Below, in pieces: positions 3,518 through 26,935 of a DNA stretch of 26,935 nucleotides; the stretch's first letter is position 1, and each line of letters starts with the position of its first letter. Below the pieces are notes generated by a model. It did no database searches. It was not told the DNA's origin and saw only the letters and a program-made list of their open reading frames with translations. A program made the position numbers and the translations under genes. Origin of the DNA: a virus (Duplodnaviria; Caudoviricetes); IMG/VR virus record IMGVR_UViG_3300044641_006843, positions 1-26,935 of that record; one strand, 5' to 3'.

Positions 3518-3519
3518 CA

Positions 3520-6566: not shown

Positions 6567-7445
6567 ATCAAGACCATCAATAACATCAACTGTAACGTGG
6601 AAATCGCGTCCTTCAACAAGGGCAACACCTACAGCAACGACACTCGCAAGGGCCTGTACGACGGCATCGAGCGTGACCTCAAGGCCATCTGGAACGAGGT
6701 CGCAGGCTTCGACCTGCACAAGGGCTACTACCTCGCCTTCCGCAAGAACGAGGACGGCAGTTGGGGCGAGGACTTCGCGGCCACCATCAAGGTGGACGAA
6801 GCCTACCTCGAAAGCCACATCCGCCGTCGCAACGAACAGATTGAGAAGTGGCTGGAAATCCCGGCCCTCAAGGCTCTCAAGAAGGAAGGCGAACTGTCCC
6901 GCTATCCCACGCACACCTGCAGTATCTTCCAGATTGAGGCCAGCCATGGCTCTCGCTGGAACGAGAAGTGCAAGCTTGTCGTCGGCCCTGACTACGGATT
7001 CGACGTGTTCACGCCCAAGGCTCTGGCCGAAGAGCCGGACCTGCACCCTGTGCACAAGGCCTACAGTTACCTGCAGGACGGCAAGTACAAGCAACTCAAG
7101 ACGGACAAGCCGTATCGCCTCTTCAAGCACTACGTCCAACTGTTCTTCGAGACGCTCAAGGACGTCGAGGCCGGATACAATAAGGCCGAAGAACTCGCCA
7201 AGCCTCACGCCGACTACCTCGCCAAGCTCGAATCGTTCGAGGCCGTGTGCGAGAAGCTCAACGACAAAATCCACAGCCAGCTGAACCCGGATGCCAAGCC
7301 CGAGCACTATCGACGCACCTACGTCGAGGCACGTGAAGACCGCATCTACCTCAGCAACTGCGTACTCAACAGCGAAGAGAACATCGACGTCGCGTCTCAG
7401 ATTCTCGAACTGATTGACAAGCTCAAGTTCGCCAAGCAAAGCTAA
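6567..7445 (+). CDS. Hypothetical early protein (282-292 aa; start GTG 6597 or in-frame ATC 6567)
   Basis: Strong C/G third-position bias; frame is open upstream of the GTG. Confidence 0.85.
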   Translation: MKTINNINCNVEIASFNKGNTYSNDTRKGLYDGIERDLKAIWNEVAGFDLHKGYYLAFRKNEDGSWGEDFAATIKVDEAYLESHIRRRNEQIEKWLEIPALKALKKEGELSRYPTHTCSIFQIEASHGSRWNEKCKLVVGPDYGFDVFTPKALAEEPDLHPVHKAYSYLQDGKYKQLKTDKPYRLFKHYVQLFFETLKDVEAGYNKAEELAKPHADYLAKLESFEAVCEKLNDKIHSQLNPDAKPEHYRRTYVEAREDRIYLSNCVLNSEENIDVASQILELIDKLKFAKQS

Positions 7446-7463
7446 CTTCCCACACACACGAAC

Positions 7464-7745
7464 ATGAAGAACCACAAGTACATCAATCTCAGCGAAATCG
7501 CTGGGGTGAAACCCAACAACAAGGTGACCAAGGTCAACAAGCCTTACATCTCGGTTGTACAAATCCAAGGCGGCGGCTCCGCCAGCGACGAGGTGACCCA
7601 GCGGGCATATGCCCTCAAGGCCCGCTTCGAAGCCGTGAAGAAGGAGTTCGCATCACGCGGAGTCCGTTTCTCGCGACACGTCTGGGCAACCGACGCCATC
7701 GATAAGGCCTTGGCCGACTTGGAAAAAACCCTCAACCTAAGCTAA
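7464..7745 (+). CDS. Hypothetical protein (93 aa)
   Basis: Leader TTCCCACACACACGAAC-ATG; early-type codon bias. Confidence 0.8.
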   Translation: MKNHKYINLSEIAGVKPNNKVTKVNKPYISVVQIQGGGSASDEVTQRAYALKARFEAVKKEFASRGVRFSRHVWATDAIDKALADLEKTLNLS

Positions 7746-7750
7746 CGACC

Positions 7751-8011
7751 ATGCATCTGTACAAGAATCCGTTGCTCGATTGGGCAATCCGCGGCGAGGG
7801 TGAAGCACCCTCGCTGTTCAAGGCCAAGCAACTCCTGCTCATCCTCAATGAGTCGGATACCGACGCCAAGAACCTGCTCATCAACCTCGAAGACCGCCAC
7901 AAGCAGGCCTTGAAAATCAAGGCCGACATCGAGAAGGGCATCGAGAACGTCACCAAGTACGTCAATGAACATCCTAAAAACAAAGAGCAAGGCCCAGCCC
8001 AAGAGTCCTGA
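7751..8011 (+). CDS. Hypothetical protein (86 aa), helical/coiled-coil
   Basis: ACGACC-ATG start context; codon bias. Confidence 0.75.
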   Translation: MHLYKNPLLDWAIRGEGEAPSLFKAKQLLLILNESDTDAKNLLINLEDRHKQALKIKADIEKGIENVTKYVNEHPKNKEQGPAQES

Positions 8012-8180
8012 GGCCCTCAAGCTTTGGCAACTCGCCCGGATTGCGTCCTACCTGCATCAGGAATACGCGTCCTCGAAAGACCCTTACGCCGAGACCCTTG
8101 CTTTGTCCGCACTCGACCTACGCAACCATAGCGTCGAGGCGGCTAAGCGGGCCACCATTTCCACCCAACACAAAGCATGA
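7965..8180 (+). CDS. Hypothetical protein (71 aa)
   Basis: Fills the gap; its TGA overlaps the next ATG. Confidence 0.6.
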   Translation: MNILKTKSKAQPKSPEALKLWQLARIASYLHQEYASSKDPYAETLALSALDLRNHSVEAAKRATISTQHKA

Positions 8181-9028
8181 AGCACTACGACATCCACGGG
8201 GACAACGTCATCAGTCTGAAGATTGAGAACGCCAAGCTCCTTAACCTCAGCGAGTCTGAGTACCGGCCGATGGCCGCGTTGAATCAGTCCTACATCAAGG
8301 ACTGCTACAACGTGTCGCCCTCCTACGCCGAGTACCGGCTCAAGAACCCGGAGATTGGCCCTGCCCTCATCTTCGGCTCAGCCCTGCACCACTACGTGCT
8401 GGAGCAAAGCACGTTCTACGGGCATTACGCAGTCGCACCACAATGCGACCGCCGCACATCGTCCGGTAAGGCTACGTGGGAGGCATTCGTCGCTGAGAGC
8501 GGTGACAAGACCGTGCTCAAGGAGGAGGACTTCCACAAGATTCACGCCATGGCCAAGGCATTGGGCACGTTGTTCCAAAGCACCGCAGTCGGTGCCAAGT
8601 ACGTCGTCGAGCAATGCATCGTGGCCGACGCCGTGGTTACCGAAGGCGAGTTCAAGGGTGCACCGCTACGCCTGAAGGCGAAGTTCGATTGGCTTAGCCT
8701 GTCGGATGACAAGCTCGTGACCAAGGACCTCAAGAGCATCGCCGACATCACGTCGGTGGTGGGAGCCTCGTACAACAACGGTTGGGCGATTCAGTCGGCG
8801 TTCTATTCGGACCTCATGACCGCCTACAAGCCGGTGCCTAACGACTTCTACTACATCCCTGTGAGCAAGGAGGAGCCGCACGACGCCCGAGTGTTCAAGG
8901 TCAGCGACGAGATGCTCATCGCCGGACGTAAGCGTTACCTGTCAGCCATCCACAAGATGCTCTGGTGGGAAGCCAACGGACGCCCGGACACCGCACAGTT
9001 CCACGGAATCGACTACCTCAATGGCTAA
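8177..9028 (+). CDS. RecE / exonuclease VIII-like PD-(D/E)xK nuclease (DUF3799-like)
   Basis: EYRPMAALNQSYIK, FGSALHHYVLE, DRRTSSGK, LKAKFDW, DLKS, QSAFYSD, VSKEEP. Confidence 0.88.
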   Translation: MKHYDIHGDNVISLKIENAKLLNLSESEYRPMAALNQSYIKDCYNVSPSYAEYRLKNPEIGPALIFGSALHHYVLEQSTFYGHYAVAPQCDRRTSSGKATWEAFVAESGDKTVLKEEDFHKIHAMAKALGTLFQSTAVGAKYVVEQCIVADAVVTEGEFKGAPLRLKAKFDWLSLSDDKLVTKDLKSIADITSVVGASYNNGWAIQSAFYSDLMTAYKPVPNDFYYIPVSKEEPHDARVFKVSDEMLIAGRKRYLSAIHKMLWWEANGRPDTAQFHGIDYLNG

Positions 9029-9689
9029 GGATTTCGAATTCAAGGGCATCTGGATTCCGTCACGGGTGTTCCTCGACGCCCGGCTGACCCAATCCGATAA
9101 GTTCCTGTTCGGGGTGATTCACATCCTGTGCAACGAGCGTGGGTGCTTCGCCACCCGCGAGAGCTTGTCCGAGTACATGGGTCAGTCCGTGCGAAACACG
9201 CAGTACAGCATCTGCCGCCTGATTGACTGTGGTTACGTCCGCAAGGACGAGGATGGCGTCCTCTGGGACATCATCAGCCATACTCTGGACCGGGGTGAAA
9301 AGCCTTTCACCGGGGGGGTGAAAGTTTCTTCACCTAAGGGGCGAAAAAATCTTCACCCAGATAGTAATAAGGATGGATACAAGGTTATAGAACAGGCGGA
9401 GGGGTCAGATGAGCCTGTCTTGGTCAATGACTCCTTCATCCGGTCCAATGCCGCCCTAGCGGCCGTCTGGGACCGTTTCCTGTCCTTCCGCCGCTCCCGT
9501 CGCTGGCCCACGAACAACGAGTACGTCGAACGCTGGAATACCTGCTTTGCGTCTTGGGGGGCCGAGAAGGCCGCTCAGGCAGTCGAGCAGAGCCTCCTGC
9601 AGGGCTGGCAGGGCATCTTTGAGCCCAAGAAGGGTTTCCCCTCGAACATTCAACCAAAGACCGACAATGACCACGCCAAAGGGTTCTGA
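9021..9689 (+). CDS. Phage replication initiator (winged-helix N-terminus)
   Basis: FKGIWIP...LTQSDKFL...GCFATRESLSEYMGQSVRN...LIDCGYV; C-terminal WDRFLSFRR...QSLLQGWQGIF; internal iterons; lies upstream of a DnaC-like gene. Confidence 0.85.
   Translation: MAKDFEFKGIWIPSRVFLDARLTQSDKFLFGVIHILCNERGCFATRESLSEYMGQSVRNTQYSICRLIDCGYVRKDEDGVLWDIISHTLDRGEKPFTGGVKVSSPKGRKNLHPDSNKDGYKVIEQAEGSDEPVLVNDSFIRSNAALAAVWDRFLSFRRSRRWPTNNEYVERWNTCFASWGAEKAAQAVEQSLLQGWQGIFEPKKGFPSNIQPKTDNDHAKGF
9292..9357 (+). repeat. Three 20-bp iterons at 23-bp period: probable replication origin
   Basis: GGGGTGAAAAGCCTTTCACC (9292), GGGGTGAAAGTTTCTTCACC (9315), GGGGCGAAAAAATCTTCACC (9338), each with internal dyad symmetry, followed by a more AT-rich tract. 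Confidence 0.8.
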
Positions 9690-10520: not shown

Positions 10521-10609
10521 AACTTGATTCAAACTACAAAAGCTATTGCATCATCTACCTCGACCCTGTGAAAGCAGGGTATAACCAACGACAACCAACC
10601 AGCACGACC

Positions 10610-10843: not shown

Positions 10844-10892
10844 GCCCAAGGGGGTGCAAAGCCCCCACCAATTTCCACACACACACACGACC

Positions 10893-11090: not shown

Positions 11091-11091
11091 C

Positions 11092-12297: not shown

Positions 12298-12304
12298 ATA
12301 ACTT

Positions 12305-12376
12305 GGCCTCATCGTTCAACGGATAGGACAAGCGTTTCCTAAACGCTTAATCTAGGTTCGATTCCTAGTGGGGCCA
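12305..12376 (+). tRNA. tRNA-Arg(CCT), canonical
   Basis: GGCCTCA/TGGGGCC, D arm GTTC-AACGGATA-GGAC with A20, AGCGT-TTCCTAA-ACGCT, T arm CTAGG-TTCGATT-CCTAG, A73; CCA not encoded. Confidence 0.95.
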
Positions 12377-12400
12377 TTAACTTTCCACCCGCACACGCAC

Positions 12401-12831: not shown

Positions 12832-12860
12832 AAGGGCCCCACTCGGGGCCCTTTCTGTTT
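12832..12860. terminator. Intrinsic terminator between convergent early and late units
   Basis: AAGGGCCCC-ACTC-GGGGCCCTT then TCTGTTT; A-rich on the left, so plausibly bidirectional. Confidence 0.75.
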
Positions 12861-12940: not shown

Positions 12941-13654
12941 CTATGCTCTCCGCCCTTTAGGGCTGAGCAAGCGGCATTTTACTTCCCTGTGGGTATGCAG
13001 GCCAGCGTACAAGCCGTACGCGATGCCTACGCCGACGCTGATGCCCAAGGCCCACCTGAACCACAACGCCTCGACCACGTCCCTTAGGACAAACGGCGTG
13101 GCGGCACACACGCCAGAAAGCAGGAACATGATGACACCGGCCCTCAGGCCTTTGCCGATGAACGTATTTGCAACCATGAATGCGGCCCCTGCGAATCCGA
13201 ATGCGAGAGCCATAAGCAAGAAAGTGTCTTGGACCTCTTTCCAAGCTTCCTCCTTCTTCATGGCCGAGATGCTGTTCCTCAGGCTTTCATTCTCCCTGTC
13301 CTTGTCTGCGATTACCTTGGCCATCTTGGTGGTCTCTGCGTCCACCTGCTTGGCCTTGGTCTGCTCGGCTTCGAGTGCCTTGGAGTTGGTTATGGTCTTG
13401 TCGAACTTGTCCACCTGTTCGGCCGTAGGCTTCTTGATGCCAGACAGCCGCGTCTCGGTGAGGTCAAGCAACGGCTTGCCCTTACCTTCAACGTTCTTCT
13501 TGGCTACGATGATGGCCGCGGCACCTTCGCTGGCCTCATGCTCAAGCCGGTCAACGTAAGCATCTTTGCTTTTGCTTGGCGGCTCAGGCTGGACGACAGG
13601 CTTGGGTGCTGACCCACAACCGCATAACAGAATGACGAGAGCTAGGTATCTCAT
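12941..13654 (-). CDS. Lipoprotein with coiled coil and C-terminal TM helices; spanin-like (237 aa)
   Basis: MRYLALVILLCGC lipobox, helical periplasmic-type region, three hydrophobic segments; ATGA-coupled to the holin-like gene. Confidence 0.6.
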   Translation of the reverse strand: MRYLALVILLCGCGSAPKPVVQPEPPSKSKDAYVDRLEHEASEGAAAIIVAKKNVEGKGKPLLDLTETRLSGIKKPTAEQVDKFDKTITNSKALEAEQTKAKQVDAETTKMAKVIADKDRENESLRNSISAMKKEEAWKEVQDTFLLMALAFGFAGAAFMVANTFIGKGLRAGVIMFLLSGVCAATPFVLRDVVEALWFRWALGISVGVGIAYGLYAGLHTHREVKCRLLSPKGRRA

Positions 13655-13932
13655 TTGATTCGAAGGACGCGACGCCGGGCCAGCTCCACCACTTCTGGTG
13701 CAAACGTACCGGCCACGGCGTAGATGACCGCCTCGTAAATGGGGGCCACCAAGCCGTGCACCGCGAAATAGCAGATGATACCGATGAGTGCACCGGCTAT
13801 GGTCCTGCGTACCCACACCAGCCAACTATGCTCTTCGTCGCTGATGAGCAGGCGAAGCAAGGCACCCATGGCACCGAGTGCGGCCATGAGCCACCCGCTG
13901 TCTTTTAGGTCATCGAGCGGGTCGGGACTCAT
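13651..13932 (-). CDS. Putative holin (93 aa)
   Basis: Three hydrophobic segments and basic C-terminus (ARRRVLRIK). Confidence 0.65.
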   Translation of the reverse strand: MSPDPLDDLKDSGWLMAALGAMGALLRLLISDEEHSWLVWVRRTIAGALIGIICYFAVHGLVAPIYEAVIYAVAGTFAPEVVELARRRVLRIK

Positions 13933-16900
13933 CGTCTCGGGTCTGCTTGGGTGTCCTGAACCAATTGTATGCGTCCTTCATGGCGGCCACCTTGGTCTGG
14001 TTGCTCTGGTCTCCGAGGGACATCAGCGTGACGCCATCGACGATTAGCTTGGCCATTTCTGAAGCGTGGCTTGCGGTCGGGAAGTTCGGCTTGATGACGA
14101 GCATCGGTCCGTTGAAAGACACGACCCTAGACATGCCAGCGGCGATTTCCTGAGAGCTGGAATTGGCATCCAGACCCATGGCATGCAACATCATAGGAAC
14201 AGGTGCGGACCATCCGATGCCTTCCGACCTGATATCGTACGGCCCAATCGCTTCTGCCTTGGAGGAACGAAGAGTCGCGAGATTCGCTTGGTCAGCGAAA
14301 TCGCTAAAAGGCTCATCAGCAACGCTGGCAGGACCGGCGAATACTTCCGAGTACCTGCCTTCATTGTAGGCTTCCTTGGTGAGGCCCTGAAGCCCGCTAC
14401 CTGCCCTTAGGTCGGTGAACTCCTTCATGCCAGCAGGGTTCCTGATGAATCCTTCCTGCTTTGCGGCGGTTGTGACTTGGTGCGAAGCACTCCTGAACGA
14501 GGATTGCATGAACGCCTCCATGACGTAGGCACCTACACGAGAGTATTGCTTCAGGAACATCGTGAGATGGGGCACGTTGCCAAGATACTTGGACGCCTGT
14601 GCCGCACGTTCTTCCGCTTCTTCCATCGTGGCAATCTTCTCAAATAGAACTTTTCCGTTAGGAGCTAGGACGACGTAGGTCTTGTCGTTGGCCATCGCGA
14701 TGGACGCTTTTTCAAACGCATCATGCGACACGGCCTCGATGGCTTTCCTCGGATTGCCAGCGTAGTAGTATTCATTGAGCCACATGGGTGCACCGTAGTT
14801 GACGGCGTATCCATGAGTCTTGTCGTAAGGCATGGCCACAAGGATGCCTTCCGGAGAAGCCGTCACCTTGGACATGCGTTTCTTCATGTCATCGGAGTCG
14901 TTGACGCCTCGGTAGGTTTCATCAAGCTTGTCCTGAGCATACCCGCCTTCTTTGAGTTCTTTGTTCTTCTTGTAGACCGATTCGATGACTGCGGTGTAAT
15001 TCCTGACCGTTTTGTCCTTGTTTTTCTCCTCTGAGAACGCATCAGGGAATTCATCGATGACCTGTTTGCCAGCGTCGATGAGCCAGCTGGATACGGACTT
15101 CTTGGTTCCTTCGATTTCCACCTCGCTGGTGAAATCTAGGTTTTCGGCCCTTACCCGGTCGATGAGCTTGTTCATCATGCCACGCTTCCTCACAAGGTCC
15201 AAAACGTAAGCGGCCTCCGGTCCGATTTTGGCCGTGTTGGAGTATCCGCTTAGCATGAAGGTTTTGCCGCCGCCTAGGTTGACACCCAAGTTGACATATC
15301 CGGACGAACTGTATCGGCTTCTGTGGTGTCGGGCGTCGGCAATGACAAGTCCCCTTTGCCTCTTTTGGAGAGCCCTCATGACGTAGAAGTTTACCATGAT
15401 GGGCCTGTAGGCGTTGTCTTCGCCGTGCGGCATGCCGTCTGGGATTACGTTAGTCACCAAGTCTCCGTCTTCGTCCAGAGTCAGGCCGGTCTTCTTGGCA
15501 ATTTCAGCCTGACGTGCCTTGAGCTTTTCGGTCTCGGAGTTCTCCTTGAAGCTTTCATGAAGCACGGCGATGGCAGGAGCCATGGATTCCATGGTCTTAC
15601 CAAGGAACGTACGTGCCCTGTGCTGGATGTATCGGGTTCCCTGAGACTCGTACAGGCCGCTGACGGAATCCATGTCGTAGTCCATGTTCTTGAACAGGGA
15701 GCCGAAATTGCTCCTGAAATTCGAAGATGCCGGGTAGTCGGATGTGTAGAAACTGTTAAACCAATCGACAGCCCTCATTTCGCCGGACTTGCCTTTGTAC
15801 ACGCCGTTGACGAAATCACGAATCATCTGTCCGGTTAGGTCGCGGTTACCAGCGGCCAGCACGTCGGTCACTTGCTCCATGTCACCGCCGGAGGCGTCCA
15901 TTAGGAAGTTGACGGTCCTAGCCATCATGGTCCTAGGGCTCATGTACTGCCTGTTTTCGAGTATGCCAGACTCACGGGCCAGACGCATGGCGTCAGCAGG
16001 CGTGGGAGCGGAAATGCTGGCACGGTTGCAGAAAGCGATGACGAAGGCCCTGAGTTCAGACTCGGACGGACCTTCGAACATGGTCTTGTGGTCTGGGAAC
16101 ATCGGGTCATCGGTAGGCAGAGGAGACTGCGAACCATGCTGGTCGGTCATGCTGATTTTCGTGTCTTGATAGGCGATGTTCTTGGCCTCTCCGGAGGACA
16201 TGTCTTCCAAAATCCGTGCCATCTTCCTCATGGCCGCGACGTCTTGGACGGTAACCATGCCACGTTCCACAAGTCCTGACGTGAACTCTTGGTTTTCCGA
16301 CAACAGCCTTACTTTTGCTGCCCAATCAGCCGCCAGCTTGTCGAAATCGATTTTGTCGAATTTAGCGATTCCTCCGGCACCATCAGCCACCTTGCACAAA
16401 TCGGAAACTTCAGCCGTGTGTGCGATGAACTCGGGAGATAGTGCCAGAAGATACTTGGCCATGCCCTGAATCCTCAGCTCCATCGAATGGCCCCCGTTAA
16501 GGAAATAACCATAGCTCATGCCTCCGAATCCGGGCATGTTTTTTTCGACTCCTAGGAAGTAAGCGTTGATTGCACCGTCGAGAAGCTGGTTAATCGGCTC
16601 GTCCACCATCCTCCGATAAAGCCTAGTAGCATTGTCCGAAAGTTCTCCGACCGGGTAAAGGTCTGGAATCTTAGCAGGCAATCCGTAGTTCTTGGTAAGG
16701 CTTTCTGGCACGGAAACGTTGCCCCTAGAAGTCCATACGCTTGGGTCGTCATCCCTAGAGATAACGAACCTGAGGAACGGACCGGAGTTCATTACATCCC
16801 TCTTGGCCATTTCCTTGTTGATGTAGGCCGTGAAGTGACGCCTGACGTACTGCCTAGCCGTGTTGCTCAGCCAAGAACGCTTCTCGTTGAGATTCATCCT

Positions 16901-19900
16901 ATTGGCAGATAACCGCTCGATGATTGCATTAATCTCCTTCTTCAATGCCGGGTTCTCTTCGATTTCCTTGAACGAAGAGTAGAGGGAAAGCCCCTCTTCC
17001 GGCCTAGCACCAAACTCCTTGCGTTGGTAGGTGTCGGATTGAAGCTCTTCGACGAAGGTGACAGGAATTTGCTTGGCGGATTCATCGCTGTTCTTTTTCA
17101 GGATGTCGTAAGCCCTGCTGACCGGACTCTGCACGGGAATGACGGAAGCGACGCTGGCATCCGTAAGCCTGAGGTGTCCAATGAGGTTGCCCAATGGAGC
17201 ACCCCTATGGGAACCGGAAGTCCTAGCGTATCCGTCGGCGATGGCCTTCTTGATTGCCATGATGTGCTTGGCCGCCTGAAGGGAGTCCAAGTATTTCTTC
17301 CTGAGCTCCGGAGGGTTTTGCCCGTCGTTGGCGTTCTGGGCAAGTGCCGCAATGTAATTCTTGAATTCCTCATCAACGGGCATGCTTTCCGTGAACAATG
17401 CCTGATAGACATGTTCGCCAAGGCCGGAAGTGTATCCGCTGTATCCGGCGTCACGATTTTTGTAAAATCCGAAATCCTTTTGGTCTTTGATGTGGGTGTC
17501 CCAATACCTTTCGGCGTTGGTCTCCCAATTCTTGAGACTGAGGTCGTATTTAGCCAGCTCGTCCACGCTGATGGTGGCCGGGTCAGGGATGTAAATTTCG
17601 ATTCCAGACAATGCGGCCAACGATTCTGCGGAAGCTTTCTTGGCGGACTCGTTGAACCCAAGCCTGTAGTACTCAAGCAGGGGTGCCGAGAATTCCATTA
17701 CCCTGTCAGGGTCGGTCGCAAGGGCCTTGAAGATTCCGCTGACGATTTCATGGGACGGCTTACCGGTAAGCCCAAGCTCCTCGACAAGCCTTACGACGGT
17801 ATCCTTGCTATAGGTCTTTTCATACGCTTCCTTGAGGCTGTTAAGATGAATGTCCTTGAGTGCCTGAAGTGCTGTCTCCATCGCAGGCCTGTTTTCATCG
17901 GAGGCCTTGGTGATTGCATGTTCGATTGCGTTAAGTTGTCCCTGCATGAGCGACAGGGTCCTGCCAGCGTAAAGCATCTTCGAGACCTGATAGTTCTCAT
18001 TGTGCGGAGACCTGATTTGCAACAGGCTCATCTGCTCGTTGAGCTTCGGCACATCGCTTTGCCACAGCTGCCTTCCCTGCCTAGGGTAGAAGACGTTGAG
18101 GTACTCCAAGATGTCTTTCTTGCTCAGGTTGTTGTCCTTGTTCGCGTAAAGGAAGTGGGCCATGCCCGTCGTACGCATCTCTCCCTTGGAAACCCTGTTA
18201 GAGGTAAGAAGGTCGAACCATTCGATGCCGGTCCTGACTTCCTTGATACGCTTGTGCTTATCCATTCCCTTGATGATGGAATTGATGAGCGTGGAGCTGA
18301 ACTGAATCGGAGAACCTCCGAGTGCGAAGTTGAGCCTAGTCCTGAGGGAGTTCTCAAGCTCTTCGACCCTATGGTCTCCGATGGACAGGGAAATCCTGTC
18401 CTGCTTTGGAGCTTCGGTGGTGATTACTTCGCCCTTCCTGATGATGTTGGAAGCCTTTCGTGCTTCTTCGGCAGTCTTGAATACCTTGGGAAGGTTGCCG
18501 ACGCCCCACACGCCATCCGCGTAGACGGGAGTGTCGGCCTGTACGACTAGGTTGAATTTGCTGGACCTCTGTACGAGGTAGGTTGCCGTGCTGGTGGCCG
18601 AAACCTCCTCAAGCTTGATGGAGTCGGGGTTTGGCGTGAGCTTGGCCACTTCCGCGTTGATTCCTCCTGCGGCAATCTTGTCCGCCAAGGCGTTGGCCTC
18701 GGATTCCGTGTCCAGATTGCGTACGATGCGTTTGACCTGCCTGCGTCCGTCCTGACCGATGGGACCGAACTCGTTCCAAGCGATGGTGTAACGCTTCTGG
18801 GCGTTCTTGAACACCGTAAGGTTGAGAGACTTGTTGGAATCCCAAGCATAGTGCTGAAGGTCTCCCCTGTCCGGGAACATCATCTCGATGATTCCTGACC
18901 TGTCGCCTGTCATGGCCAACGACCTTTCATTGTCAGGCAGGAAGTAACCGGACTCACCGGTCATGATTCGGTGGAACGCCGCGGTCATGTCGCCGTGCAT
19001 GTTCTGGTTCACGATGTTGGCAGACTTGATTGCCTCCATCATCAGGGTATCCGGTCCGACGCCTCCGCTACCGCTTCCCTTTTCCTTGCCGAGCAACTGA
19101 AGTGCCGCGTTGCCGGAGCTGGCCTTAGGCTCCTCCTTCATCATGAAGTCAACCAGCCTTGCATAGGATTCTCCCTGACCGGAGAAACGTTGGTAAATCT
19201 GTCCGAAGTTGTTTGCGGCAGTAGGGCCGTTGCCTCCCCAGACAGACCTGAGCGACCTAGACGCAGACCAAGGACTGTCGATGATTCCAGCGGAGGCATA
19301 GTTCGAGAACACGGCCGCGTTGAAGTCTTCGATTTTCGCGTCCTTCGGAAGAATGAACGTCTGGTATGCCCACTCCTGAGAAACGTCATGCATGAACTCG
19401 TCACAGCATACGAGCATGTGATAGAGGTCTTCCTTGCCGGACGGGATGTTTCCGTCGAGGAGGTTCTGCAAGGTTTCCCTAATCTTGGGAACCATTTGGC
19501 CCGGTAGAGAAGTCATTCCCGTGCCGCCTGACAGTTTGTTCTGGGTGCTACCTCCTAGGTAGATGTCGCCCGTCATCAGCTTCCTGACACCCTGAAGGTA
19601 GTCGATGATTGAAGCTTGGTCGATGGCGGCGAACTTCTTTCCTAGGGAGGAGAAGACATACTTGTTTCCAACCATGTTGGCCGGAATCGGGTTGTTGTGT
19701 GCGAAGCTGTTCAGGATAGACTTCCTGATGATGGACTGAGACACGGCGGTCTTTCCATTGGCATCCCAACCTACCGCACGAAGAAGAGGAATACCGATGG
19801 ACGGCCTCCAATTGTCGTCATGGACGGTGTCGTAGCTCGCGGCGATGTTGGTATCGGGAGAGAAGTTGACCATGATGCGTCCGTCCTCCAGACGCCTCCA

Positions 19901-22900
19901 GCTAAAGCCAATCTTTCCGTAATCCCTTCCGTGCATCATGTTGCCCATGCCGGTGGTGCCAGCCGCGGCCATCGTCTTCCACATCATGGGCCCGGCGTTC
20001 TTCATGGCGGTCTGCCTGCCTTCGGTGTTTACGATTTGGAGGAAGGACGGATTAGGAGAAGAGGATGCCGCGTAACGACCGGCAGGGAACGAAAGCTCGG
20101 TCTTGCCTAGCTGTTTCGCGATGGCGGCCAGACGGTTTGTCATCAACGACCTCTTGAAACTTTGACTGAGCACGTTTCCTAGTGCGGGAGAATTGGCCAA
20201 CGTTACTCCTCCCGTACCGATGACGTAATTTGAGGTGGTGTAGTAATCGCTTCCTCCCAAATCTTTCTGCTTGAGGACATTTCTTCCGCTTCCGGCCTCA
20301 TCTTCTCCGAAGACCATGGCATCCTCAAGAAGCCCGCGAAGGCTGACGATGGAATTCTCCATGGCTTCATGCATGCTGATTTCACGACTCGATTGCTCGA
20401 CGTAGCCTACGGGTGTGACGAAGGAGTTGATTGCGGCATCAATGCCATTGTCTCTGTCAAACGATTCCCAATTGGTCCTAGCAGAACCACGCTCATATTT
20501 GACGCCGTGAGAAGGACCAAAACTACGTTCAAGTGCGAAGGAAGCACCTTCGTACGCTTTGTTCTGGATTCCCGGAGTGTATGCAGGGTCATGCCTGAAT
20601 TTAGCAACAGGAGGAGAGTAGAACGGAAACAGGAAGCTTTGGGTGTCGTCCGTGAGCTGGATGTCATTAAGGAGCCTACGCACAGGGGTATTCTTCCTGC
20701 TTGAATAGCTTTCATGGAAGTTGGCTTTGTATCCTTTCGTACGCTTATCCTTCATCGCGGCCATGCCGGCGGCGACGCCATGCCAAAATTCATTACGTTC
20801 GTCGTGGATTGCGTTGGCGATAACTTCTCCGAGCATCGCGGCCACCTTGTTTGGCCCTAAATCGTTTAACCCCTGCAAGGCGGCATGCTGGCCCATAAGG
20901 TGGTCCATGCCGTATGCAGAGCCGAAGTTCAGGGAATCCCTGAGCGTAAACTCGACGTTATCAGGAAGCCTTTTGCCTTCTTTTTCAAACGCTACGCCGG
21001 ACATAAGACCAAGCATGGTCAGTATGCCCGAGGAGGAATGCTGAGAGGTAAGCTCGTGCACGAGGCGGTTTTTTGCCTCTGAGCCGATTCCGGCCACCCA
21101 ATCGTTGACGTATCCCTTAAACTGTTCAGGAGTGGCGTTGCCCTCTCCAATCTTCGTCTCAAGGAAGGCGAACGCATCGCTGGTGATGGCACCGAAATTG
21201 GTAAGTTCCACTAGGCCGTCTTCCGTCGCCCTTGAAAGTCCGTTCTGAAGAAGTGCAAAGAGATAGGGTGCAACAGCCGCACCGAGTGCGGAATGGCTTA
21301 GGTGAACTCCGTTTTCCACATTGAACGCGACCTTCTTGTTTTCGGAGATGGAGGCTTTTGCCATAGGACCGGTCGTGTCCGCAAAGATTGACATAATCTG
21401 CGGAAGGCTTGCCTGAATGTGATTCTGATTGTTGTCGGGTCCGCCCTCGTTCTTGAGCATGACCATGCCCATCAGGGACTGTACGGCTAGGATGTTGCCT
21501 CCGACATAGTGGGCCAAGGCGGTCTTTTCATTGGACAGACTGATAAAAGAAACCGCCTGAGGGTCGGTGAGCTTTTCAAGGTATTCTACAAACACCTTGG
21601 CACGGTCGTATCCTCCGACGGAACGCTCCATGTCCTGCTTAAACTTGGTTGGGTTTGTCAGCAATTCCTTCCACCTGAATTTCTGCGGCCTTTGCAAATT
21701 AAACAGGGAGAATCCTACATAGCTTTCAACGTTCGTGAGGGTCCTGTTGATTTTTTCGATAGCGTCTGCCGGGATGCCACGACCTTCGGACGTCATCTTG
21801 TAGGAATTAAGGCCGTCGAAGCTTACGGAGAACGGGTCAACAGAGACGATTCCCTTGCCTTCGGCCGTTACGGCACCGAAGACGCCGGTAAGCGTCTGTC
21901 CTCGCGTCATCATCAGGCCGGACGGTACGATGTACTGAAGTTCCGTGCTGAACTGAGGAGAAATCCTCTGTTCTGCCGCCGACTTGAAGATTGCATCCCT
22001 AGAACCAAGTCCGGCACGCCACACGTCCATGACCTTCATGGCAAGGGCTACCTGCGACTCGATGCTGGAGATACGCCTGCTGACGTCGCTGATGAGCGGC
22101 TGTACGAGTGCGGCCCTAGTCTCAAGAGGAAGGGCGGCAAGTTCTGCGAACGTGTACTTGCTCATGAACCCACCTAGGTCCGACTGATTCTCAAGGTAAC
22201 TGACGATGTCCGAGTCATCCTCGAAGAAGTTTTCGTCCAGCTCGTTGAGCGTGGCGATGTCATTGAGTTCACGCTTGACGGTCCCAAGCATTTCAAGGCT
22301 TTCCCTGTGGTCCTCCACGGTCTTTCCGAAGGAGTACATGATGTTATCTAGCATCTGCGAGCTTCCGGGGAGGTTCTGCTGAATCTGCCTGTAGGTTCCG
22401 GCCATCTGCTCATCGTAATGCATGAGCGAGGCTTTTGGCTCCGAGGTCGGAACATCATCAAGTCTCTCGGCTTGGAAAGCGTCGATGTTGCTTCCGTATG
22501 CACGTGTTTCGGCAACGTCCGTGGAAGCCACCGTCTGTGCGTCCTTCAGGTCATGGATGTATGCACCGAAGATTCCGGAAAGTGCCGAAGGAACGAAGCC
22601 AGAATGCCTGATAGACCTAATGCCGTGCTTTTCTCCGTAGGCGGTCGGGATTTCTGCGTTAAATCCAAGCCTCTTTTTCAGGATTGCGGAAGAGCCCTCG
22701 CCCGCACCGAAGAAAGAGCCGACGTTTTCGAACAATCCGCTGTCCAGCGTAGTAATCGGGAAATGTGCACCTGCGACAAGCTCGACAGTAGCCGCCGCCA
22801 TGTCGTCCAGAAGGAGTCCGTAAAGCCTGCGGGCAAGCTTCGGGTCTCCCTCGATGTTGGATTCAATCTTTTTGACGGCTTGCTGTACGACAGGTCCGAT

Positions 22901-25900
22901 GAGCATGGTCGCCCTGTTAATCCTGTCGTTGAGCATAACGGCGTACTCCGTTCCGACTGCCACCTTTGGCAGGTTCTTAATGAACATGCCGCTATCGACG
23001 CGTTTCCTGAACGCAGTCCAATCTTCCATGGATGCCCAGCTGGGCCTGTTCTCCATGCTGAAGCTAATCTTGGCACCGTCCCAGACATACCTTCCGAGCG
23101 TAATTTTGGAGGTCTTTTGGCTTACGGGCCGGTTGTTCCTGCCGGATACTTCATTGAACACGCCCTCAAGGTAAGAGGGGTCGTTCTTGGTAAGCCTAAG
23201 CATGTGCTCTTTGCCTAGCTTCATGCCCTTGGCGGAGGGAACCCCGCCCTTTCCGGAAACAGAGCGGGCCGTGCTGAAATTGATGTGGTTGAAGGCGAGG
23301 ATGTTCAGCAGGTCGTTCTTCGTGAAGATGTGGTCCTTCATCGCCTCGTCGATTGAGTCGAGCAGGACGGCTTTTGCGGCGTCCTCCGAGAACAGGCCAT
23401 GCTTGGAAAGCTCGGTCCTGATTTCACCGCCAAGCACCATGGCCGGGAATCGGTCGGAGTTGACGATGTCGATGACGCTATTTCCTACGGACAGGATGTC
23501 CTCGGCCTCGATGACGAATCCGGCAAGCTTGGCGAAATCCTTGATGGTATAGGTCATCGGCTGGCCGGTCTTGCCCATCTCCTTTGCGGTGGCCATGAAC
23601 GAGCCGCCCTCATAAGAAAGGTTTTCCTTTCCAAGCTGCACGGCCGCCTGAGCGGCGGCGTGGTAATCGCCCTTAACGAGGTAATGACCGCTGGTGAGGA
23701 TGAGCCTTCCGTTTTCGTCGATTTCCCATCCGCTCTGCTGGACGATGAACCTTTCGAGGTTGTCCAGCTCGGTGCTGGCCCTAGCCGCAAGGTACCTGAC
23801 CAACGCCATCTTGCCGAACATCTGTGCGGCCTTGTTGTCATCGGCCTTTTCTCCGATGCCAGCAATGGACATCAGGACCGTGGACTGACTAAGGCTTCGT
23901 CCACGCATGATGCCCTTGTTCATGGCATCGTCGATAATCTGGAGCACCGAAGTGTTCTCGGCCGCAATCCTGTCCTTCATCGCAAGCTCAAGCTGACTGA
24001 GTCCGCGGCGTTGCTGGGTCGTGAACGCTTGTCGCTCGACGGGGTCCATGACGTACTCCAGACGGGAGTAATTGGTGATGGCCTTGTGTAGCTCGGTCAT
24101 CCTTCCGAACGGAGCGGAAGTGTCTACCATGTTGGCGTAATGCGTGACCATGGCCATTGCCGCGATTGCCGCCCTGAATTCCTTGTTTTCAGCGAGGGTG
24201 GTCACATACCTAGGGCTGGCATCTCCGACCTTCTCCTTGAAAGCGTCCAGCTCCTTGTAGAGGGTATAGGCATCCGCAATGGTATCTAGGCGACCGGCCT
24301 TGTAGTGAAGGTCTCCTGCGGCCCTGTACAGTTCGTCGCTTAGGCGACCGGCGTTATGTTCTGCCGTCGCAAATTCCATCATGTTCCTCACGGCCGACCT
24401 GACGATTGGCTTCGCCGAATACTCTAAGCTGGCGATGACGGGGGGAGTGTTGGACTTGACCAGAGCGTCCACCATCCTCTGTTGCCTGATGCCATGCTTG
24501 AAGTCGAAGTATGAAGCAGGAGAGGTATCCGTGTAGTCCACACCCAAAAGTTTGGCGAAGTTTTCCTTAATAGCTTCGTTGGCTACTCCCTGAATGGCCT
24601 TTTCGTCGTCCAGCAGGTTGCCCATTTTCTGCAAAATGTGCTGTACCTCGTGGACAAACAGGCCGGTGACGTAGTTGCTACCGGAGAATTTGCTGTTGAG
24701 CGACTCGGCGTCGGCCTTGAATTTGTCAAATTCGACGGGCAAATTGAGCTCAGCGGAAGCTAGGGCACGGGCACCGATTTCAATAATGAACGTACCGTAC
24801 ATTGTGCGAATTGCCCTAGCACCATGGATGTCAACAAACCTAACCTCGACGTCTTTGAGCTGTGGGAAATACCTGTAAAGCAGGTCATGTCCGAAGACCT
24901 TTCCAAGTTTCGTGCTCCCAAGAATCTTGTCCCTGTCAATGAAGGCTGAAATGCCCGGAGTAGTCATGCGGGTTCTCACTTCGTTGGCATACGCATCGAA
25001 GGCCTTTTGCATATCAGGACTGTCGGCAAACGGAAGGAGGTGCGGAGCACCGCCGGAAGTGGTGTAATCGACGTAAGAATCCCTGTCGGAAATCTCGAAG
25101 ATTTCGGTCATGATTCCCTTGACCATGACTTTTTTGATAAGTCCGAGTTTGGTCAGCTCGTTTTTCTGGACGCTGGACAGGCCCGTGACGTCGGCCAAGG
25201 ACATGGACGGTTCAGCCTTTGACCTTTCGAAGAAGGCCTCCTGCTCCTTGTGGAACTTCCTGATTGTGTCGATGAGGGCATCAGCCCTTTTCCTTTGCTG
25301 GGGGCTGAGGCCGTGGTCGGCGTAGAATTTCCTGCCCATGACGGTGTCAAGGGCTTCGCTCATCTTGGACAAGGGGCTTCCAAGAGACCAATACTTCTGC
25401 ATCTCAAGCTCCCAGCTGGCCAATGCCTCGTCCATGAACCTGTCTGCAAGCTGTTTCTGGTATTGGCTAAGGTCGGTGGTGGTGGCCCCGGTAACGGCCC
25501 TGATTCTTTCGGACGGGTCCAATGCCTTTTCGATGCTGTGGACGGCCGTGGCCAATCCAATCAAAGCCGGGTTGGCGTTTTCAATCACTTCAGTCAACAG
25601 GAGCTCGCTGTAATTCACCCTGTCCACAGGAGAGCCTTCGGTGGCTTCGTATGCACTCCTCAGTTCCTTAAGCTTAGCATCAAGCTCGGGATTCATTGCG
25701 ATGATTGCGGCCTCAAGCATGCCAACATGGGTCATGGCTTGAACGTCCCTCTGGCTCATACGCTTCGAGTCCGGGAGCATCAAACGCCTTACCAACGCGG
25801 CATACGCATTGGAGTCGGACATCTTAAATCCATCGGCTTGGGCGTTCCTAGCGATTTCAGTACCGCCAAGGATGCTTGCGTCCATGGCGTTCCATCCCTG

Positions 25901-26935
25901 CTTCACTCCTCGGAAAGTGGCACCGATGCCTCCGTTGCCTACTAGGGTGATGTTGCCGTTGTAAAATACGATGGCTACCGGCTCCTTGATTGCCGAGTTG
26001 AGCTGGTTGAAGGTGTATTCCGCGGAGATGACTTTGGAATCATTGATGGTGTTGAACACGGACACCGTATCCGCACCGCGTAGCTCAGGGCTTACCTGCT
26101 GTACCAAGGCATGCAGGGGATTTCTGAAAAAATTAGCCATAAACGCAGACACTTTATTCTTCTTCTTAGTTTCTTCTGCTACGTTATTATCCTTAACACT
26201 TTCCTTAAAAGCGTTGAGTGCAACCAAAGCTGCGTCAATTTTCCTAGCGTCTTCGATGTTCGGGAAAGTGTATGCGTATTCCCTTCCGCCCTTGTCGCTG
26301 GCAACGTCAACCCAGTTGGATTCGTCACCGTTGAGCATTCCGTCAACGATGTTGTTAACCGCAAGAAGCCCTTCCCTGATTGTTCCGTATGACTTGTCGA
26401 AAAGCTCCCTGTTCATAGGCCTGATTGTTTCAGACAGGTTCTGGAACACGCCCTTCGCATTGCTCTCTACGGCGTACTTCTTCTTGTTGTCCAAATTGGC
26501 CTTTAGCTCAGAGCCCTTGGTAACCTCCTTGAGTAGCCTCATGCCCTCGGGTGCATCGACGAGCACGTTCTTCATGTACTCCTTGTCAGACCTTACGAGA
26601 GTGCGGCCCTTGCCGATTTCTTCTGACCTCTTCTGCCTGTACTTCTCGGGGTCCCTGTGTTTGGACATCAGGGCTTCGGCTTGACGCTTGTATCCGTCGA
26701 TTGAATCGACGTCTTTTACGATGTTAAGGGTCTCGAAATGATAGGCCAGATTGGAGCCATAAGGGCTGAATGCGGCACTCTGGGTCTCAATGGTGGACTC
26801 CATGGCGTGCATCAGCATCTTGAGCCGTCCTTCTTCCGTCTTGGCCACACGCTCGATGTAGTTCGTGTCGATGAACAGGCCGATGTTTCCGGTGCGACCG
26901 GAACGCTGTACCGTGAAGTACCTGCCGGTATGCTT
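13910..26935 (-). CDS. Giant polyvalent-type (probably virion/ejected) protein, at least 4,341 aa, 5' end outside window
   Basis: Frame stays open upstream of the track's GTG to the window edge (KHTGRYFTVQRSGR...); FEISD (25085-25099) plus HEVQH zincin motif (24638-24652); FVEELQSD (17033-17056). Confidence 0.85.
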   Translation of the reverse strand, partial: KHTGRYFTVQRSGRTGNIGLFIDTNYIERVAKTEEGRLKMLMHAMESTIETQSAAFSPYGSNLAYHFETLNIVKDVDSIDGYKRQAEALMSKHRDPEKYRQKRSEEIGKGRTLVRSDKEYMKNVLVDAPEGMRLLKEVTKGSELKANLDNKKKYAVESNAKGVFQNLSETIRPMNRELFDKSYGTIREGLLAVNNIVDGMLNGDESNWVDVASDKGGREYAYTFPNIEDARKIDAALVALNAFKESVKDNNVAEETKKKNKVSAFMANFFRNPLHALVQQVSPELRGADTVSVFNTINDSKVISAEYTFNQLNSAIKEPVAIVFYNGNITLVGNGGIGATFRGVKQGWNAMDASILGGTEIARNAQADGFKMSDSNAYAALVRRLMLPDSKRMSQRDVQAMTHVGMLEAAIIAMNPELDAKLKELRSAYEATEGSPVDRVNYSELLLTEVIENANPALIGLATAVHSIEKALDPSERIRAVTGATTTDLSQYQKQLADRFMDEALASWELEMQKYWSLGSPLSKMSEALDTVMGRKFYADHGLSPQQRKRADALIDTIRKFHKEQEAFFERSKAEPSMSLADVTGLSSVQKNELTKLGLIKKVMVKGIMTEIFEISDRDSYVDYTTSGGAPHLLPFADSPDMQKAFDAYANEVRTRMTTPGISAFIDRDKILGSTKLGKVFGHDLLYRYFPQLKDVEVRFVDIHGARAIRTMYGTFIIEIGARALASAELNLPVEFDKFKADAESLNSKFSGSNYVTGLFVHEVQHILQKMGNLLDDEKAIQGVANEAIKENFAKLLGVDYTDTSPASYFDFKHGIRQQRMVDALVKSNTPPVIASLEYSAKPIVRSAVRNMMEFATAEHNAGRLSDELYRAAGDLHYKAGRLDTIADAYTLYKELDAFKEKVGDASPRYVTTLAENKEFRAAIAAMAMVTHYANMVDTSAPFGRMTELHKAITNYSRLEYVMDPVERQAFTTQQRRGLSQLELAMKDRIAAENTSVLQIIDDAMNKGIMRGRSLSQSTVLMSIAGIGEKADDNKAAQMFGKMALVRYLAARASTELDNLERFIVQQSGWEIDENGRLILTSGHYLVKGDYHAAAQAAVQLGKENLSYEGGSFMATAKEMGKTGQPMTYTIKDFAKLAGFVIEAEDILSVGNSVIDIVNSDRFPAMVLGGEIRTELSKHGLFSEDAAKAVLLDSIDEAMKDHIFTKNDLLNILAFNHINFSTARSVSGKGGVPSAKGMKLGKEHMLRLTKNDPSYLEGVFNEVSGRNNRPVSQKTSKITLGRYVWDGAKISFSMENRPSWASMEDWTAFRKRVDSGMFIKNLPKVAVGTEYAVMLNDRINRATMLIGPVVQQAVKKIESNIEGDPKLARRLYGLLLDDMAAATVELVAGAHFPITTLDSGLFENVGSFFGAGEGSSAILKKRLGFNAEIPTAYGEKHGIRSIRHSGFVPSALSGIFGAYIHDLKDAQTVASTDVAETRAYGSNIDAFQAERLDDVPTSEPKASLMHYDEQMAGTYRQIQQNLPGSSQMLDNIMYSFGKTVEDHRESLEMLGTVKRELNDIATLNELDENFFEDDSDIVSYLENQSDLGGFMSKYTFAELAALPLETRAALVQPLISDVSRRISSIESQVALAMKVMDVWRAGLGSRDAIFKSAAEQRISPQFSTELQYIVPSGLMMTRGQTLTGVFGAVTAEGKGIVSVDPFSVSFDGLNSYKMTSEGRGIPADAIEKINRTLTNVESYVGFSLFNLQRPQKFRWKELLTNPTKFKQDMERSVGGYDRAKVFVEYLEKLTDPQAVSFISLSNEKTALAHYVGGNILAVQSLMGMVMLKNEGGPDNNQNHIQASLPQIMSIFADTTGPMAKASISENKKVAFNVENGVHLSHSALGAAVAPYLFALLQNGLSRATEDGLVELTNFGAITSDAFAFLETKIGEGNATPEQFKGYVNDWVAGIGSEAKNRLVHELTSQHSSSGILTMLGLMSGVAFEKEGKRLPDNVEFTLRDSLNFGSAYGMDHLMGQHAALQGLNDLGPNKVAAMLGEVIANAIHDERNEFWHGVAAGMAAMKDKRTKGYKANFHESYSSRKNTPVRRLLNDIQLTDDTQSFLFPFYSPPVAKFRHDPAYTPGIQNKAYEGASFALERSFGPSHGVKYERGSARTNWESFDRDNGIDAAINSFVTPVGYVEQSSREISMHEAMENSIVSLRGLLEDAMVFGEDEAGSGRNVLKQKDLGGSDYYTTSNYVIGTGGVTLANSPALGNVLSQSFKRSLMTNRLAAIAKQLGKTELSFPAGRYAASSSPNPSFLQIVNTEGRQTAMKNAGPMMWKTMAAAGTTGMGNMMHGRDYGKIGFSWRRLEDGRIMVNFSPDTNIAASYDTVHDDNWRPSIGIPLLRAVGWDANGKTAVSQSIIRKSILNSFAHNNPIPANMVGNKYVFSSLGKKFAAIDQASIIDYLQGVRKLMTGDIYLGGSTQNKLSGGTGMTSLPGQMVPKIRETLQNLLDGNIPSGKEDLYHMLVCCDEFMHDVSQEWAYQTFILPKDAKIEDFNAAVFSNYASAGIIDSPWSASRSLRSVWGGNGPTAANNFGQIYQRFSGQGESYARLVDFMMKEEPKASSGNAALQLLGKEKGSGSGGVGPDTLMMEAIKSANIVNQNMHGDMTAAFHRIMTGESGYFLPDNERSLAMTGDRSGIIEMMFPDRGDLQHYAWDSNKSLNLTVFKNAQKRYTIAWNEFGPIGQDGRRQVKRIVRNLDTESEANALADKIAAGGINAEVAKLTPNPDSIKLEEVSATSTATYLVQRSSKFNLVVQADTPVYADGVWGVGNLPKVFKTAEEARKASNIIRKGEVITTEAPKQDRISLSIGDHRVEELENSLRTRLNFALGGSPIQFSSTLINSIIKGMDKHKRIKEVRTGIEWFDLLTSNRVSKGEMRTTGMAHFLYANKDNNLSKKDILEYLNVFYPRQGRQLWQSDVPKLNEQMSLLQIRSPHNENYQVSKMLYAGRTLSLMQGQLNAIEHAITKASDENRPAMETALQALKDIHLNSLKEAYEKTYSKDTVVRLVEELGLTGKPSHEIVSGIFKALATDPDRVMEFSAPLLEYYRLGFNESAKKASAESLAALSGIEIYIPDPATISVDELAKYDLSLKNWETNAERYWDTHIKDQKDFGFYKNRDAGYSGYTSGLGEHVYQALFTESMPVDEEFKNYIAALAQNANDGQNPPELRKKYLDSLQAAKHIMAIKKAIADGYARTSGSHRGAPLGNLIGHLRLTDASVASVIPVQSPVSRAYDILKKNSDESAKQIPVTFVEELQSDTYQRKEFGARPEEGLSLYSSFKEIEENPALKKEINAIIERLSANRMNLNEKRSWLSNTARQYVRRHFTAYINKEMAKRDVMNSGPFLRFVISRDDDPSVWTSRGNVSVPESLTKNYGLPAKIPDLYPVGELSDNATRLYRRMVDEPINQLLDGAINAYFLGVEKNMPGFGGMSYGYFLNGGHSMELRIQGMAKYLLALSPEFIAHTAEVSDLCKVADGAGGIAKFDKIDFDKLAADWAAKVRLLSENQEFTSGLVERGMVTVQDVAAMRKMARILEDMSSGEAKNIAYQDTKISMTDQHGSQSPLPTDDPMFPDHKTMFEGPSESELRAFVIAFCNRASISAPTPADAMRLARESGILENRQYMSPRTMMARTVNFLMDASGGDMEQVTDVLAAGNRDLTGQMIRDFVNGVYKGKSGEMRAVDWFNSFYTSDYPASSNFRSNFGSLFKNMDYDMDSVSGLYESQGTRYIQHRARTFLGKTMESMAPAIAVLHESFKENSETEKLKARQAEIAKKTGLTLDEDGDLVTNVIPDGMPHGEDNAYRPIMVNFYVMRALQKRQRGLVIADARHHRSRYSSSGYVNLGVNLGGGKTFMLSGYSNTAKIGPEAAYVLDLVRKRGMMNKLIDRVRAENLDFTSEVEIEGTKKSVSSWLIDAGKQVIDEFPDAFSEEKNKDKTVRNYTAVIESVYKKNKELKEGGYAQDKLDETYRGVNDSDDMKKRMSKVTASPEGILVAMPYDKTHGYAVNYGAPMWLNEYYYAGNPRKAIEAVSHDAFEKASIAMANDKTYVVLAPNGKVLFEKIATMEEAEERAAQASKYLGNVPHLTMFLKQYSRVGAYVMEAFMQSSFRSASHQVTTAAKQEGFIRNPAGMKEFTDLRAGSGLQGLTKEAYNEGRYSEVFAGPASVADEPFSDFADQANLATLRSSKAEAIGPYDIRSEGIGWSAPVPMMLHAMGLDANSSSQEIAAGMSRVVSFNGPMLVIKPNFPTASHASEMAKLIVDGVTLMSLGDQSNQTKVAAMKDAYNWFRTPKQTRDDESRPAR

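Follow-up and report, generated by a model that had tools for sequence, protein, structure and literature searches.

A tRNA-like RNA with alanine identity elements in tailed phages, whose variable loop usually matches the codon purged from early genes

Introduction

Allo-tRNAs, in which identity is decoupled from the anticodon, carry diverse anticodons, including those for AGA/AGG and Leu codons, and are found near toxin-antitoxin loci; some have a G3:U70 pair, and one class causes growth arrest of E. coli by misincorporation (Mukai et al., PMC5389517). Their acceptor branches are of the 8/4 or 9/3 type and are accompanied by a long variable arm, as stated in the relevant passages of that report. 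The mycobacteriophage DS6A encodes a small RNA consisting of only the tRNA-like domain of tmRNA, with tmRNA-like ends and no message domain (PMC4131195). Stop-codon recoding in phages combines a codon confined to late genes with a phage tRNA, and has been proposed to control timing (Borges et al., bioRxiv 10.1101/2021.08.26.457843). In Sf14, the late genes use the codons read by phage tRNAs (PMC12482277; Yang et al. 2021 as cited there). Finally, nuclease-resistant phage tRNAs with odd anticodon arms and lineage-specific tRNA content have been described in the setting of conflict with the host (van den Berg et al., PMC10264068).

The locus analysed here lies in a stretch of 26,935 nucleotides from a virus of the Caudoviricetes (IMG/VR record IMGVR_UViG_3300044641_006843), hereafter called the window. 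Like the allo-tRNAs, its 70-nt RNA belongs to a family that combines one identity (alanine) with various anticodon-like loops (CCT, TAC, CAA, CCC, TAG, TTG, TGA and TAA, with a TGC element as the exception to the mismatch). Unlike the allo-tRNAs, it has a 7/5 branch in place of 8/4 or 9/3 and lacks a variable arm, and it is accompanied by a matched codon purge, of which the relevant passages of PMC5389517 describe none. With the DS6A RNA it shares small size, tmRNA-like ends and the lack of a message domain with a tag frame; in contrast to the tRNA-like domain of tmRNA, which has no anticodon stem-loop (PMC4131195), it bears a variable anticodon-like loop that matches the purged codon. The late-confined codon of the window differs from the stop-codon systems (10.1101/2021.08.26.457843) in being a sense codon within an unchanged code, in sparing the capsid gene, and in that a second RNA tracks an early ban. 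It differs from Sf14 (PMC12482277) in that a single tRNA is involved, the contrast is all-or-none, and relatives have swapped anticodons. As far as their description goes, the tRNAs of van den Berg et al. (PMC10264068), in contrast to the window RNA, are cognate and come without a shift in codon frequency. The literature that we searched, largely outside subscription papers and supplements, contained no case of a phage RNA from whose loop a codon purge could be predicted. The combination of RNA and purge therefore appears to be a new kind of system, with a putative function.

Results

Layout of the window

The window covers 27 kb out of a phage of ~48 kb (Table 1), and the early, middle and late labels used here are predictions based on gene function and orientation. 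The early operon encodes an orphan protein of 282 residues, an exonuclease VIII-like protein, an initiator, a DnaC-like protein, ERF, an RHH protein and small ORFs. The giant late gene, at its full length in G001, a genome of the window lineage, encodes 5707 residues. Pfam and PHROG searches found no match for the spanin-like and holin-like genes. The major capsid gene of the relatives corresponds to phrog_1328.

Table 1. Features of the window and their coordinates
Feature	Positions	Strand	Remarks
Late block start, 2492-2998 through terminase large subunit fragment	3..2998	-	AGG 21/63
Middle block: RusA, putative small terminase, 4375-4842, SLT-domain gene, 5400-5864	2995..5864	both
Sigma70-like early promoter motif TTGAC-N17-CANNNT	5926..5953	+	upstream of RNA cluster
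tRNA-like element 1, loop CAT 6019-6021	5989..6058	+	cloverleaf-like fold, z=-4.1
tRNA-like element 2, no D-stem, loop CCT 6092-6094	6068..6136	+
tRNA-Met(CAT)	6142..6219	+	ARAGORN; Rfam 61 bits
Alanine-identity tRNA-like RNA, 70 nt, anticodon-like loop CCT 6250-6252	6223..6292	+	Rfam tmRNA ends, identity pairs
Early operon, 14 genes	6597..12811	+	AGG 0/102
tRNA-Arg(CCT), anticodon 12338-12340	12305..12376	+	directly after ERF; ARAGORN, Rfam 57 bits
Terminator-like bidirectional hairpin, separating early and late transcripts	12832..12853	.
Spanin-like (AGG 6/12) and holin-like (AGG 1/7) genes	12941..13932	-	named by sequence shape
Giant late gene	13910..26935	-	5' end beyond window; AGG 141/232, AGA 7/232

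The orphan protein (6597-7445, plus strand) is 45% identical to its counterpart in the sister genome G002, with flanking genes at ~87%. It has seven homologues and no match in Pfam, PHROG, PADLOC, atlas or PDB sequences, and its predicted structure (pLDDT 78) has no viral fold match at E<=0.001. We rejected it as a partner nuclease of the RNA, since these searches linked it to no such family or viral fold and it is missing from most RNA-bearing relatives. Directly 3' of the RNA cluster, a hydrophobic mini-ORF of 29 residues (6408-6497, plus strand), with similar peptides across the clade, possibly encodes a membrane peptide. AC-rich runs, rather than purine-rich ribosome-binding sites, often precede the early genes (6520-6560, 10880-10892 and 12390-12400). 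As to the host, cultured phages match the capsid protein at just 24-30% and have mixed hosts, two genome scans were empty, and the atlas returned viral taxa only.

AGG is confined to the late genes

Among Arg codons, the AGG contrast between the 14 early genes and the giant gene has a Fisher p of 7.5e-32, and the strongest contrast outside Arg, that of CTT, reaches 3.6e-8. Hand counts in the initial annotation (ERF 0/12, ORF 6597-7445 0/13, spanin-like gene 6/12, terminase fragment 3/9) were reproduced exactly, and full counts bore out its impressions of no AGG in the exonuclease and initiator genes (0/9 and 0/16) and of frequent AGG in the giant gene, where the codon is spread along the entire length at 8-18 per 400 codons. 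The gene at 1602-2420, inside the late block, has just one AGG among 17 Arg codons. The five middle genes (2995-5864) have 0/45, as compared to 9-30% in relatives. AGA is likewise absent from the window early genes (0/102).

Purine skew between the strands, which had been raised as a potential trivial cause, leaves the split unexplained. On the minus strand, the non-late genes (RusA, 4375-4842 and SLT) have 0/30, versus 28/82 in the other late genes (p=4e-5). The AGG:CGG ratio moves from 0:18 in the early genes to 141:6 in the giant gene, while TTG:CTG is 20:49 versus 44:71; the first-position pairs TTG:CTG and AGY:TCY differ little between early and late genes, as does base composition. AGG triplets that are off-frame or on the antisense strand occur at the level of the relatives, so the depletion is restricted to the reading frame. 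These controls rule out strand skew, first-position bias and motif avoidance as the cause of the split. Reassignment of AGG was also rejected: opposite the late-gene AGG codons of G001, Arg is the commonest residue in all four relatives compared (27, 35, 29 and 43 sites), followed by Lys (5-9 sites), and the distant relatives mostly have CGN.

The late genes follow the phage tRNA-Arg

The tRNA reading AGG that had been noticed in the early region is an intact tRNA-Arg(CCT), with a full cloverleaf, all stems paired, and both A20 and A73. A20 and A/G73 are identity elements of tRNA-Arg. The position of the gene is kept clade-wide, but in some lineages the anticodon is TCT or the gene is absent. 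We compared 13 related records fetched whole. In all eight genomes with tRNA-Arg(CCT), including the window, AGG makes up 55-72% and AGA 3-10% of the Arg codons in the giant gene, and early and late genes differ at p<=2e-4. In all four genomes with tRNA-Arg(TCT), giant-gene AGA rises to 26-71%. Two genomes carry neither tRNA, namely G005 (99% complete) and G011 (89%), with G012, 43% complete, not counted among them; in both, the split is absent, as the initial annotation had anticipated (early versus late AGG 24 versus 21% and 29 versus 27%; p=0.6 and 0.7). Their giant genes still use 31% and 43% AGG, and the early genes of G013, which has TCT and ACG tRNAs, use 38%. The AGG:AGA ratio of 141:7 in the window giant gene compares with 204:66, 127:156, 108:38 and 18:123 for other purine-ending pairs.

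In G001, AGG occurs in 23 of 25 late genes and in none of the 14 early genes, with the capsid gene at 1/28. The capsid gene has 0-3 AGG among 17-28 Arg codons in each of the 12 genomes in which it was found, with zero in several relatives. Since the capsid gene shuns AGG in every relative, a hard timing switch is unlikely; the tRNA-Arg thus favours AGR in the lower-copy late genes, without gating the most abundant one. That the late genes follow the anticodon of the phage tRNA-Arg is supported clade-wide, and this behaviour is an extreme case of the late-gene use of phage tRNAs known from Sf14, as far as that system is described in PMC12482277. The same late-gene rule holds for other codons in distant relatives. 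In those with a CAT tRNA (L096, L099, L101, L103 and L105), ATA makes up 33-45% of late Ile codons versus 8-12% in non-late genes, and in two of them with tRNA-Leu(TAG) (L096 and L099), CTA is at 16% in late versus 0-1.5% in non-late genes.

The total early ban on AGG is specific to the window lineage

The other carriers of tRNA-Arg(CCT) have 13-25% AGG in their early genes, except G014 with 5% (5/99). Outside the late genes, AGG is nearly absent only in the window lineage (G001 0/100; non-late genes of L199 1/153 and of L156 1/47). Where G002 has AGG at a conserved non-late Arg position (24 sites), G001 always has CGN (CGC 10, CGG 7, CGT 4 and CGA 3), and of 61 late conserved Arg sites with AGG in G002, 32 are also AGG in G001. 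Judged from these alignments, the purge is recent, synonymous and limited to non-late genes. The AGG split is made of two layers: the late genes follow the tRNA-Arg, and a lineage-specific early ban tracks the RNA at 6223-6292. The initial annotation had proposed that accumulating tRNA-Arg(CCU) switches on late translation, possibly tuned by two CCT mimics. Of this, the late AGG following the phage tRNA is supported, and the hard switch by accumulation is not supported, given the AGG-poor capsid gene and the early AGG in five of the six other CCT lineages. As for the mimics, the RNA at 6223-6292 looks central, with CCT in all four close relatives; the loop of 6068-6136 varies.

An alanine-type RNA lies in the cluster ahead of the early operon

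The promoter-like motif upstream of the cluster, first chosen by eye, has three matches in the whole window and precedes the alanine-type RNA by 67-297 nt in 15/15 loci; a generic promoter scan did not report the one at 5926-5953. Homologues of the first tRNA-like element in L209/L147 have the loop CAC. The loop of the second element differs among phages that are 90-98% identical, including L199 and L156, and this element was rejected as the determinant of the AGG ban. The tRNA-Met has an initiator-like body with U1-A72, lacking the triple G-C anticodon stem typical of initiators. Internal Met amounts to 1.1% in the window early genes (6597-12811) versus 1.6-2.2% in seven other lineages, and the two CAT elements lie nearby.

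The alanine-type RNA folds into a 7+5 acceptor/T helix and a single extended arm that is interrupted by an internal loop and capped by an apical one, with little or no D-stem; in some relatives, the acceptor branch is possibly 6+4 with unpaired bases. Pattern scans found 15 copies in the phage group. G1-C72, G2-C71, G3·U70 and A73 are invariant in all 15, and the acceptor pairs 4, 5 and 6 are altered on both sides in 4, 6 and 4 of 14 copies, respectively, which amounts to covariation. The elements G1-C72, G2-C71 and A73 contribute to recognition by alanyl-tRNA synthetase, and G3:U70 is an identity element of this enzyme (PMC5389517). A TGC-loop alanine-type element, built differently, occupies the same place in L012, L094, L268 and L277. 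The Rfam tmRNA model gives 6223-6292 a score of 32.7 bits, under its cut-off of 47, and ARAGORN reports no tmRNA there. With the R2 RNA model, the L070 clade, L090, L095, L080, L085 and L018 gave no member of the family, and a relaxed ARAGORN scan gave only noise. In other loci, a 64-nt RNA corresponds to the tRNA-like domain of tmRNA alone, with a short closing hairpin (L170:1237-1300; Rfam tmRNA 60 bits), and its like occurs in L127/L231, L173, L175, L181, L183, L189, L192, L201, L206, L213 and L219.

The loop matches the codon purged from early genes

Codon use was compared in the homologous early-operon regions of 19 lineages. With a CCT loop, the cognate AGG is at 0/102 versus 24% in the other lineages; with TAC, GTA is at 0/102 versus 11%; with CAA, TTG at 1/113 versus 8.6%; with CCC, GGG at 0/69 versus 12%; with TTG, CAA at 0/18 versus 28%; and with TGC, GCA at 0/109 versus 16%. 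Three lineages with a TAG loop have CTA at 0/116, 0/121 and 0/128 versus 4.4%. The TAA loop is uninformative (TTA 0/92 versus 1.6%), and the TGA loop is a failure (TCA 2/33 early versus 7%, and 9/116 in non-late genes). The loop thus usually matches the codon that is purged from early genes only.

The cognate codon ranks lowest in 9 of 11 lineages, with a combined rank p of 8e-5 for early and 0.62 for late genes. A purge was found in 9/11 cognate cells as compared to 21/1110 others, a background of 1.9%, and label permutation reached this match in 0 of 100000 trials (0.0004 without the window and TGC lineages). The GC outlier L019 was left out of some rank tests, and the distant loci L096-L105 stood outside the early-codon and purge-cell tests. 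The pattern is a mirror image in two sisters with ~80% DNA identity: the window has AGG at 0/102 and GTA at 11/109, and L209 has AGG at 20/106 and GTA at 0/102. The purge extends to the middle genes in some lineages (AGG, GTA and one CTA) and spares them in others (TTG 8/70 and GGG 7/44).

Strength of the match, and purges without the RNA

Most loops were read after the codon tables were already known. Eight predictions were fixed before counting, of which six were borne out, the other two failing on non-late genes; five of the six repeat known anticodons, and of the two new ones, TTG passed (CAA 2/50) and TGA failed. The other failure, L188, has CTA at 4/103 in non-late genes, yet 0/41 in the strict early set. 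The CAA depletion is confounded by GC content, as CAA is rare in the sister L092 too (2/29 early). A common origin of the three TAG lineages is possible. The loop register is ambiguous in 8 of 14 loops and was chosen on the basis of helix closure and position; the L006 loop lacks U33 and fits no register. Among alternative registers, one of six cells tested was depleted (L010, TTT 1/49; post hoc).

Purges also occur without an alanine-type RNA (ACA 0/105 in G013, CTA 0/174 in G005 and AGG 5/99 in G014). The ACA (Thr) case was observed in the early genes of L070, L072, L073, L076, L079 and L083 (G013). In L070 (6545-6625), a conserved mini-ORF of eight codons, after tRNA-Arg(ACG), has ACA as codon 3 and overlaps a folded RNA, usually with a CCA end; this mini-ORF and RNA are possibly a sensor. 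The early genes of L093 (G010) have zero AGG, GTA, CAA, CTA and GCA in the homologous regions, either through high GC content or because they are immune to several kinds of loop. Some early clusters contain real tRNAs, which go with an early purge of the codon that they read by wobble: CAT with His(GTG) in L004 and L008 (1/27 and 0/30), CGA with Arg(ACG) in L070, L076 and L079 (0/71, 0/71 and 0/66), and CCG with Pro(TGG) in L085 (1/45). The phages L171 and L174 are 90% identical with matching flanks and have different loops, CAA and TGA. This suggests recent swaps, which could explain the failed TGA case.

Discussion

How might a small RNA and a purged codon belong together? We favour, with a probability of slightly over one half, the reading that the RNA at 6223-6292 is a phage-made, alanine-charged, codon-specific inhibitor of translation, to which the early genes are immunised by the codon purge. 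Lying near the start of the early transcript, the RNA would be transcribed first and would be charged with alanine. Charging by alanyl-tRNA synthetase is independent of the anticodon, which leaves the loop free to vary. The charged RNA would then pair with its cognate codon in the ribosomal A site and stall, misread or abort translation. In this it would act much as the missense allo-tRNAs do (PMC5389517). The TGC element, with its alanine body and alanine anticodon, argues against plain misincorporation as the general mechanism, and points to stalling or abortion. The early genes would escape, having shed the one cognate codon, and the inhibition would act on genes of the host, on competing relatives and on the late genes of the phage itself, which are rich in AGG. 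Release would come by decay of the RNA or, in the window lineage, through competition from the real tRNA-Arg(CCU); both the window lineage and the TGC lineage carry, at the end of the early operon, a real tRNA that reads the respective codon. In several other lineages no matching real tRNA was found, which leaves the late-gene escape there unexplained and speaks against an inhibitor. In its favour are the purge being strongest in the RNA's own operon, the alanine identity that frees the loop, and the bans on AGG, TTG and GGG, which are hard to obtain by the loss of C34 tRNAs, as these are usually redundant.

A second reading, which we regard as unlikely but as the strongest of the rivals, makes the RNA a decoy: at the onset of infection, one tRNA species falls victim to a host toxin or anticodon nuclease, the RNA soaks up this activity, and the codon is kept out of the early genes for as long as the tRNA pool is depleted, with alanine charging merely stabilising the RNA. 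This is the simpler account of the wobble-codon purges beside real cluster tRNAs (CAT, CGA and CCG), which look as if host tRNAs were lost, and for the TGC element it requires no miscoding. However, a defence triggered by infection should strike the late genes most, yet the purge is early-only. A decoy also has no need for an invariant alanine identity and, if charged, would reach the ribosomes, and the nine different anticodons include several of the usually redundant C34 tRNAs. Phage tRNAs that counter host tRNases are published, although the phages concerned have no codon-frequency shift as far as that report describes them (PMC10264068).

It is improbable that the tRNA-Arg alone explains the data, with late and lysis translation awaiting accumulated tRNA-Arg(CCU) in a host that reads AGG poorly and the look-alikes being incidental. 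Late AGG/AGA tracks the anticodon in 12/12 tRNA-carrying genomes, the split is absent in 2/2 without the tRNA, nearly all G001 late genes contain AGG, and ATA is elevated in the late genes of distant relatives with a CAT tRNA. Against this, the capsid gene is nearly AGG-free everywhere, other CCT carriers tolerate early AGG, the tRNA-Arg itself sits within the early operon, and the bans on GTA, TTG, GGG, CTA and CAA, codons for which no real tRNA turned up in the lineages concerned, are unexplained. Such a supply effect covers only the late-gene layer.

More doubtful still is an inhibitor of trans-translation, in which the RNA would mimic the tRNA-like domain of tmRNA and titrate SmpB. The weak Rfam tmRNA matches (32.7 and 28.6 bits) and the comparable RNA of DS6A, as described in PMC4131195, are in line with it, but with the codon match as a side effect or chance, it gives no reason for 9/11 loop-codon matches against a 1.9% background. 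An ordinary expression-level or compositional bias, with highly expressed genes shunning minor codons and the giant gene drifting, is largely refuted: the capsid gene does avoid every targeted codon and shares low AGG, CTT and GGA with the early genes, but the bans are reciprocal in sister phages, and the giant-gene AGG:AGA ratio is unlike other purine-ending pairs and shifts with the anticodon.

A broader, tentative but quite conceivable picture is that of a reprogrammable phage RNA weapon: an alanine-charged mini-tRNA re-aimed at another sense codon by a few loop changes and stopping translation of any host, competitor or late gene that contains it, with synonymous purging of the early operon as immunity and, in the window lineage, tRNA-Arg(CCU) as the antidote, together forming a brake-and-release clock. 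An RNA that inhibits decoding would provide host shut-off or phage-versus-phage competition without a protein toxin, aimed at a single codon and with synonymous recoding as the means of immunity. Even as a decoy, the RNA would name, by its loop, the tRNA under attack in each lineage. The test material is compact, as a 70-nt RNA with eight natural loop variants and a second architecture makes one prediction each. It is a long-standing question what tRNAs and their look-alikes are for in phages, and this would become directly testable, even under the decoy reading. Codon use in late genes can likewise be studied in an unusual natural experiment, as relatives have swapped the anticodon of tRNA-Arg or lost the gene.
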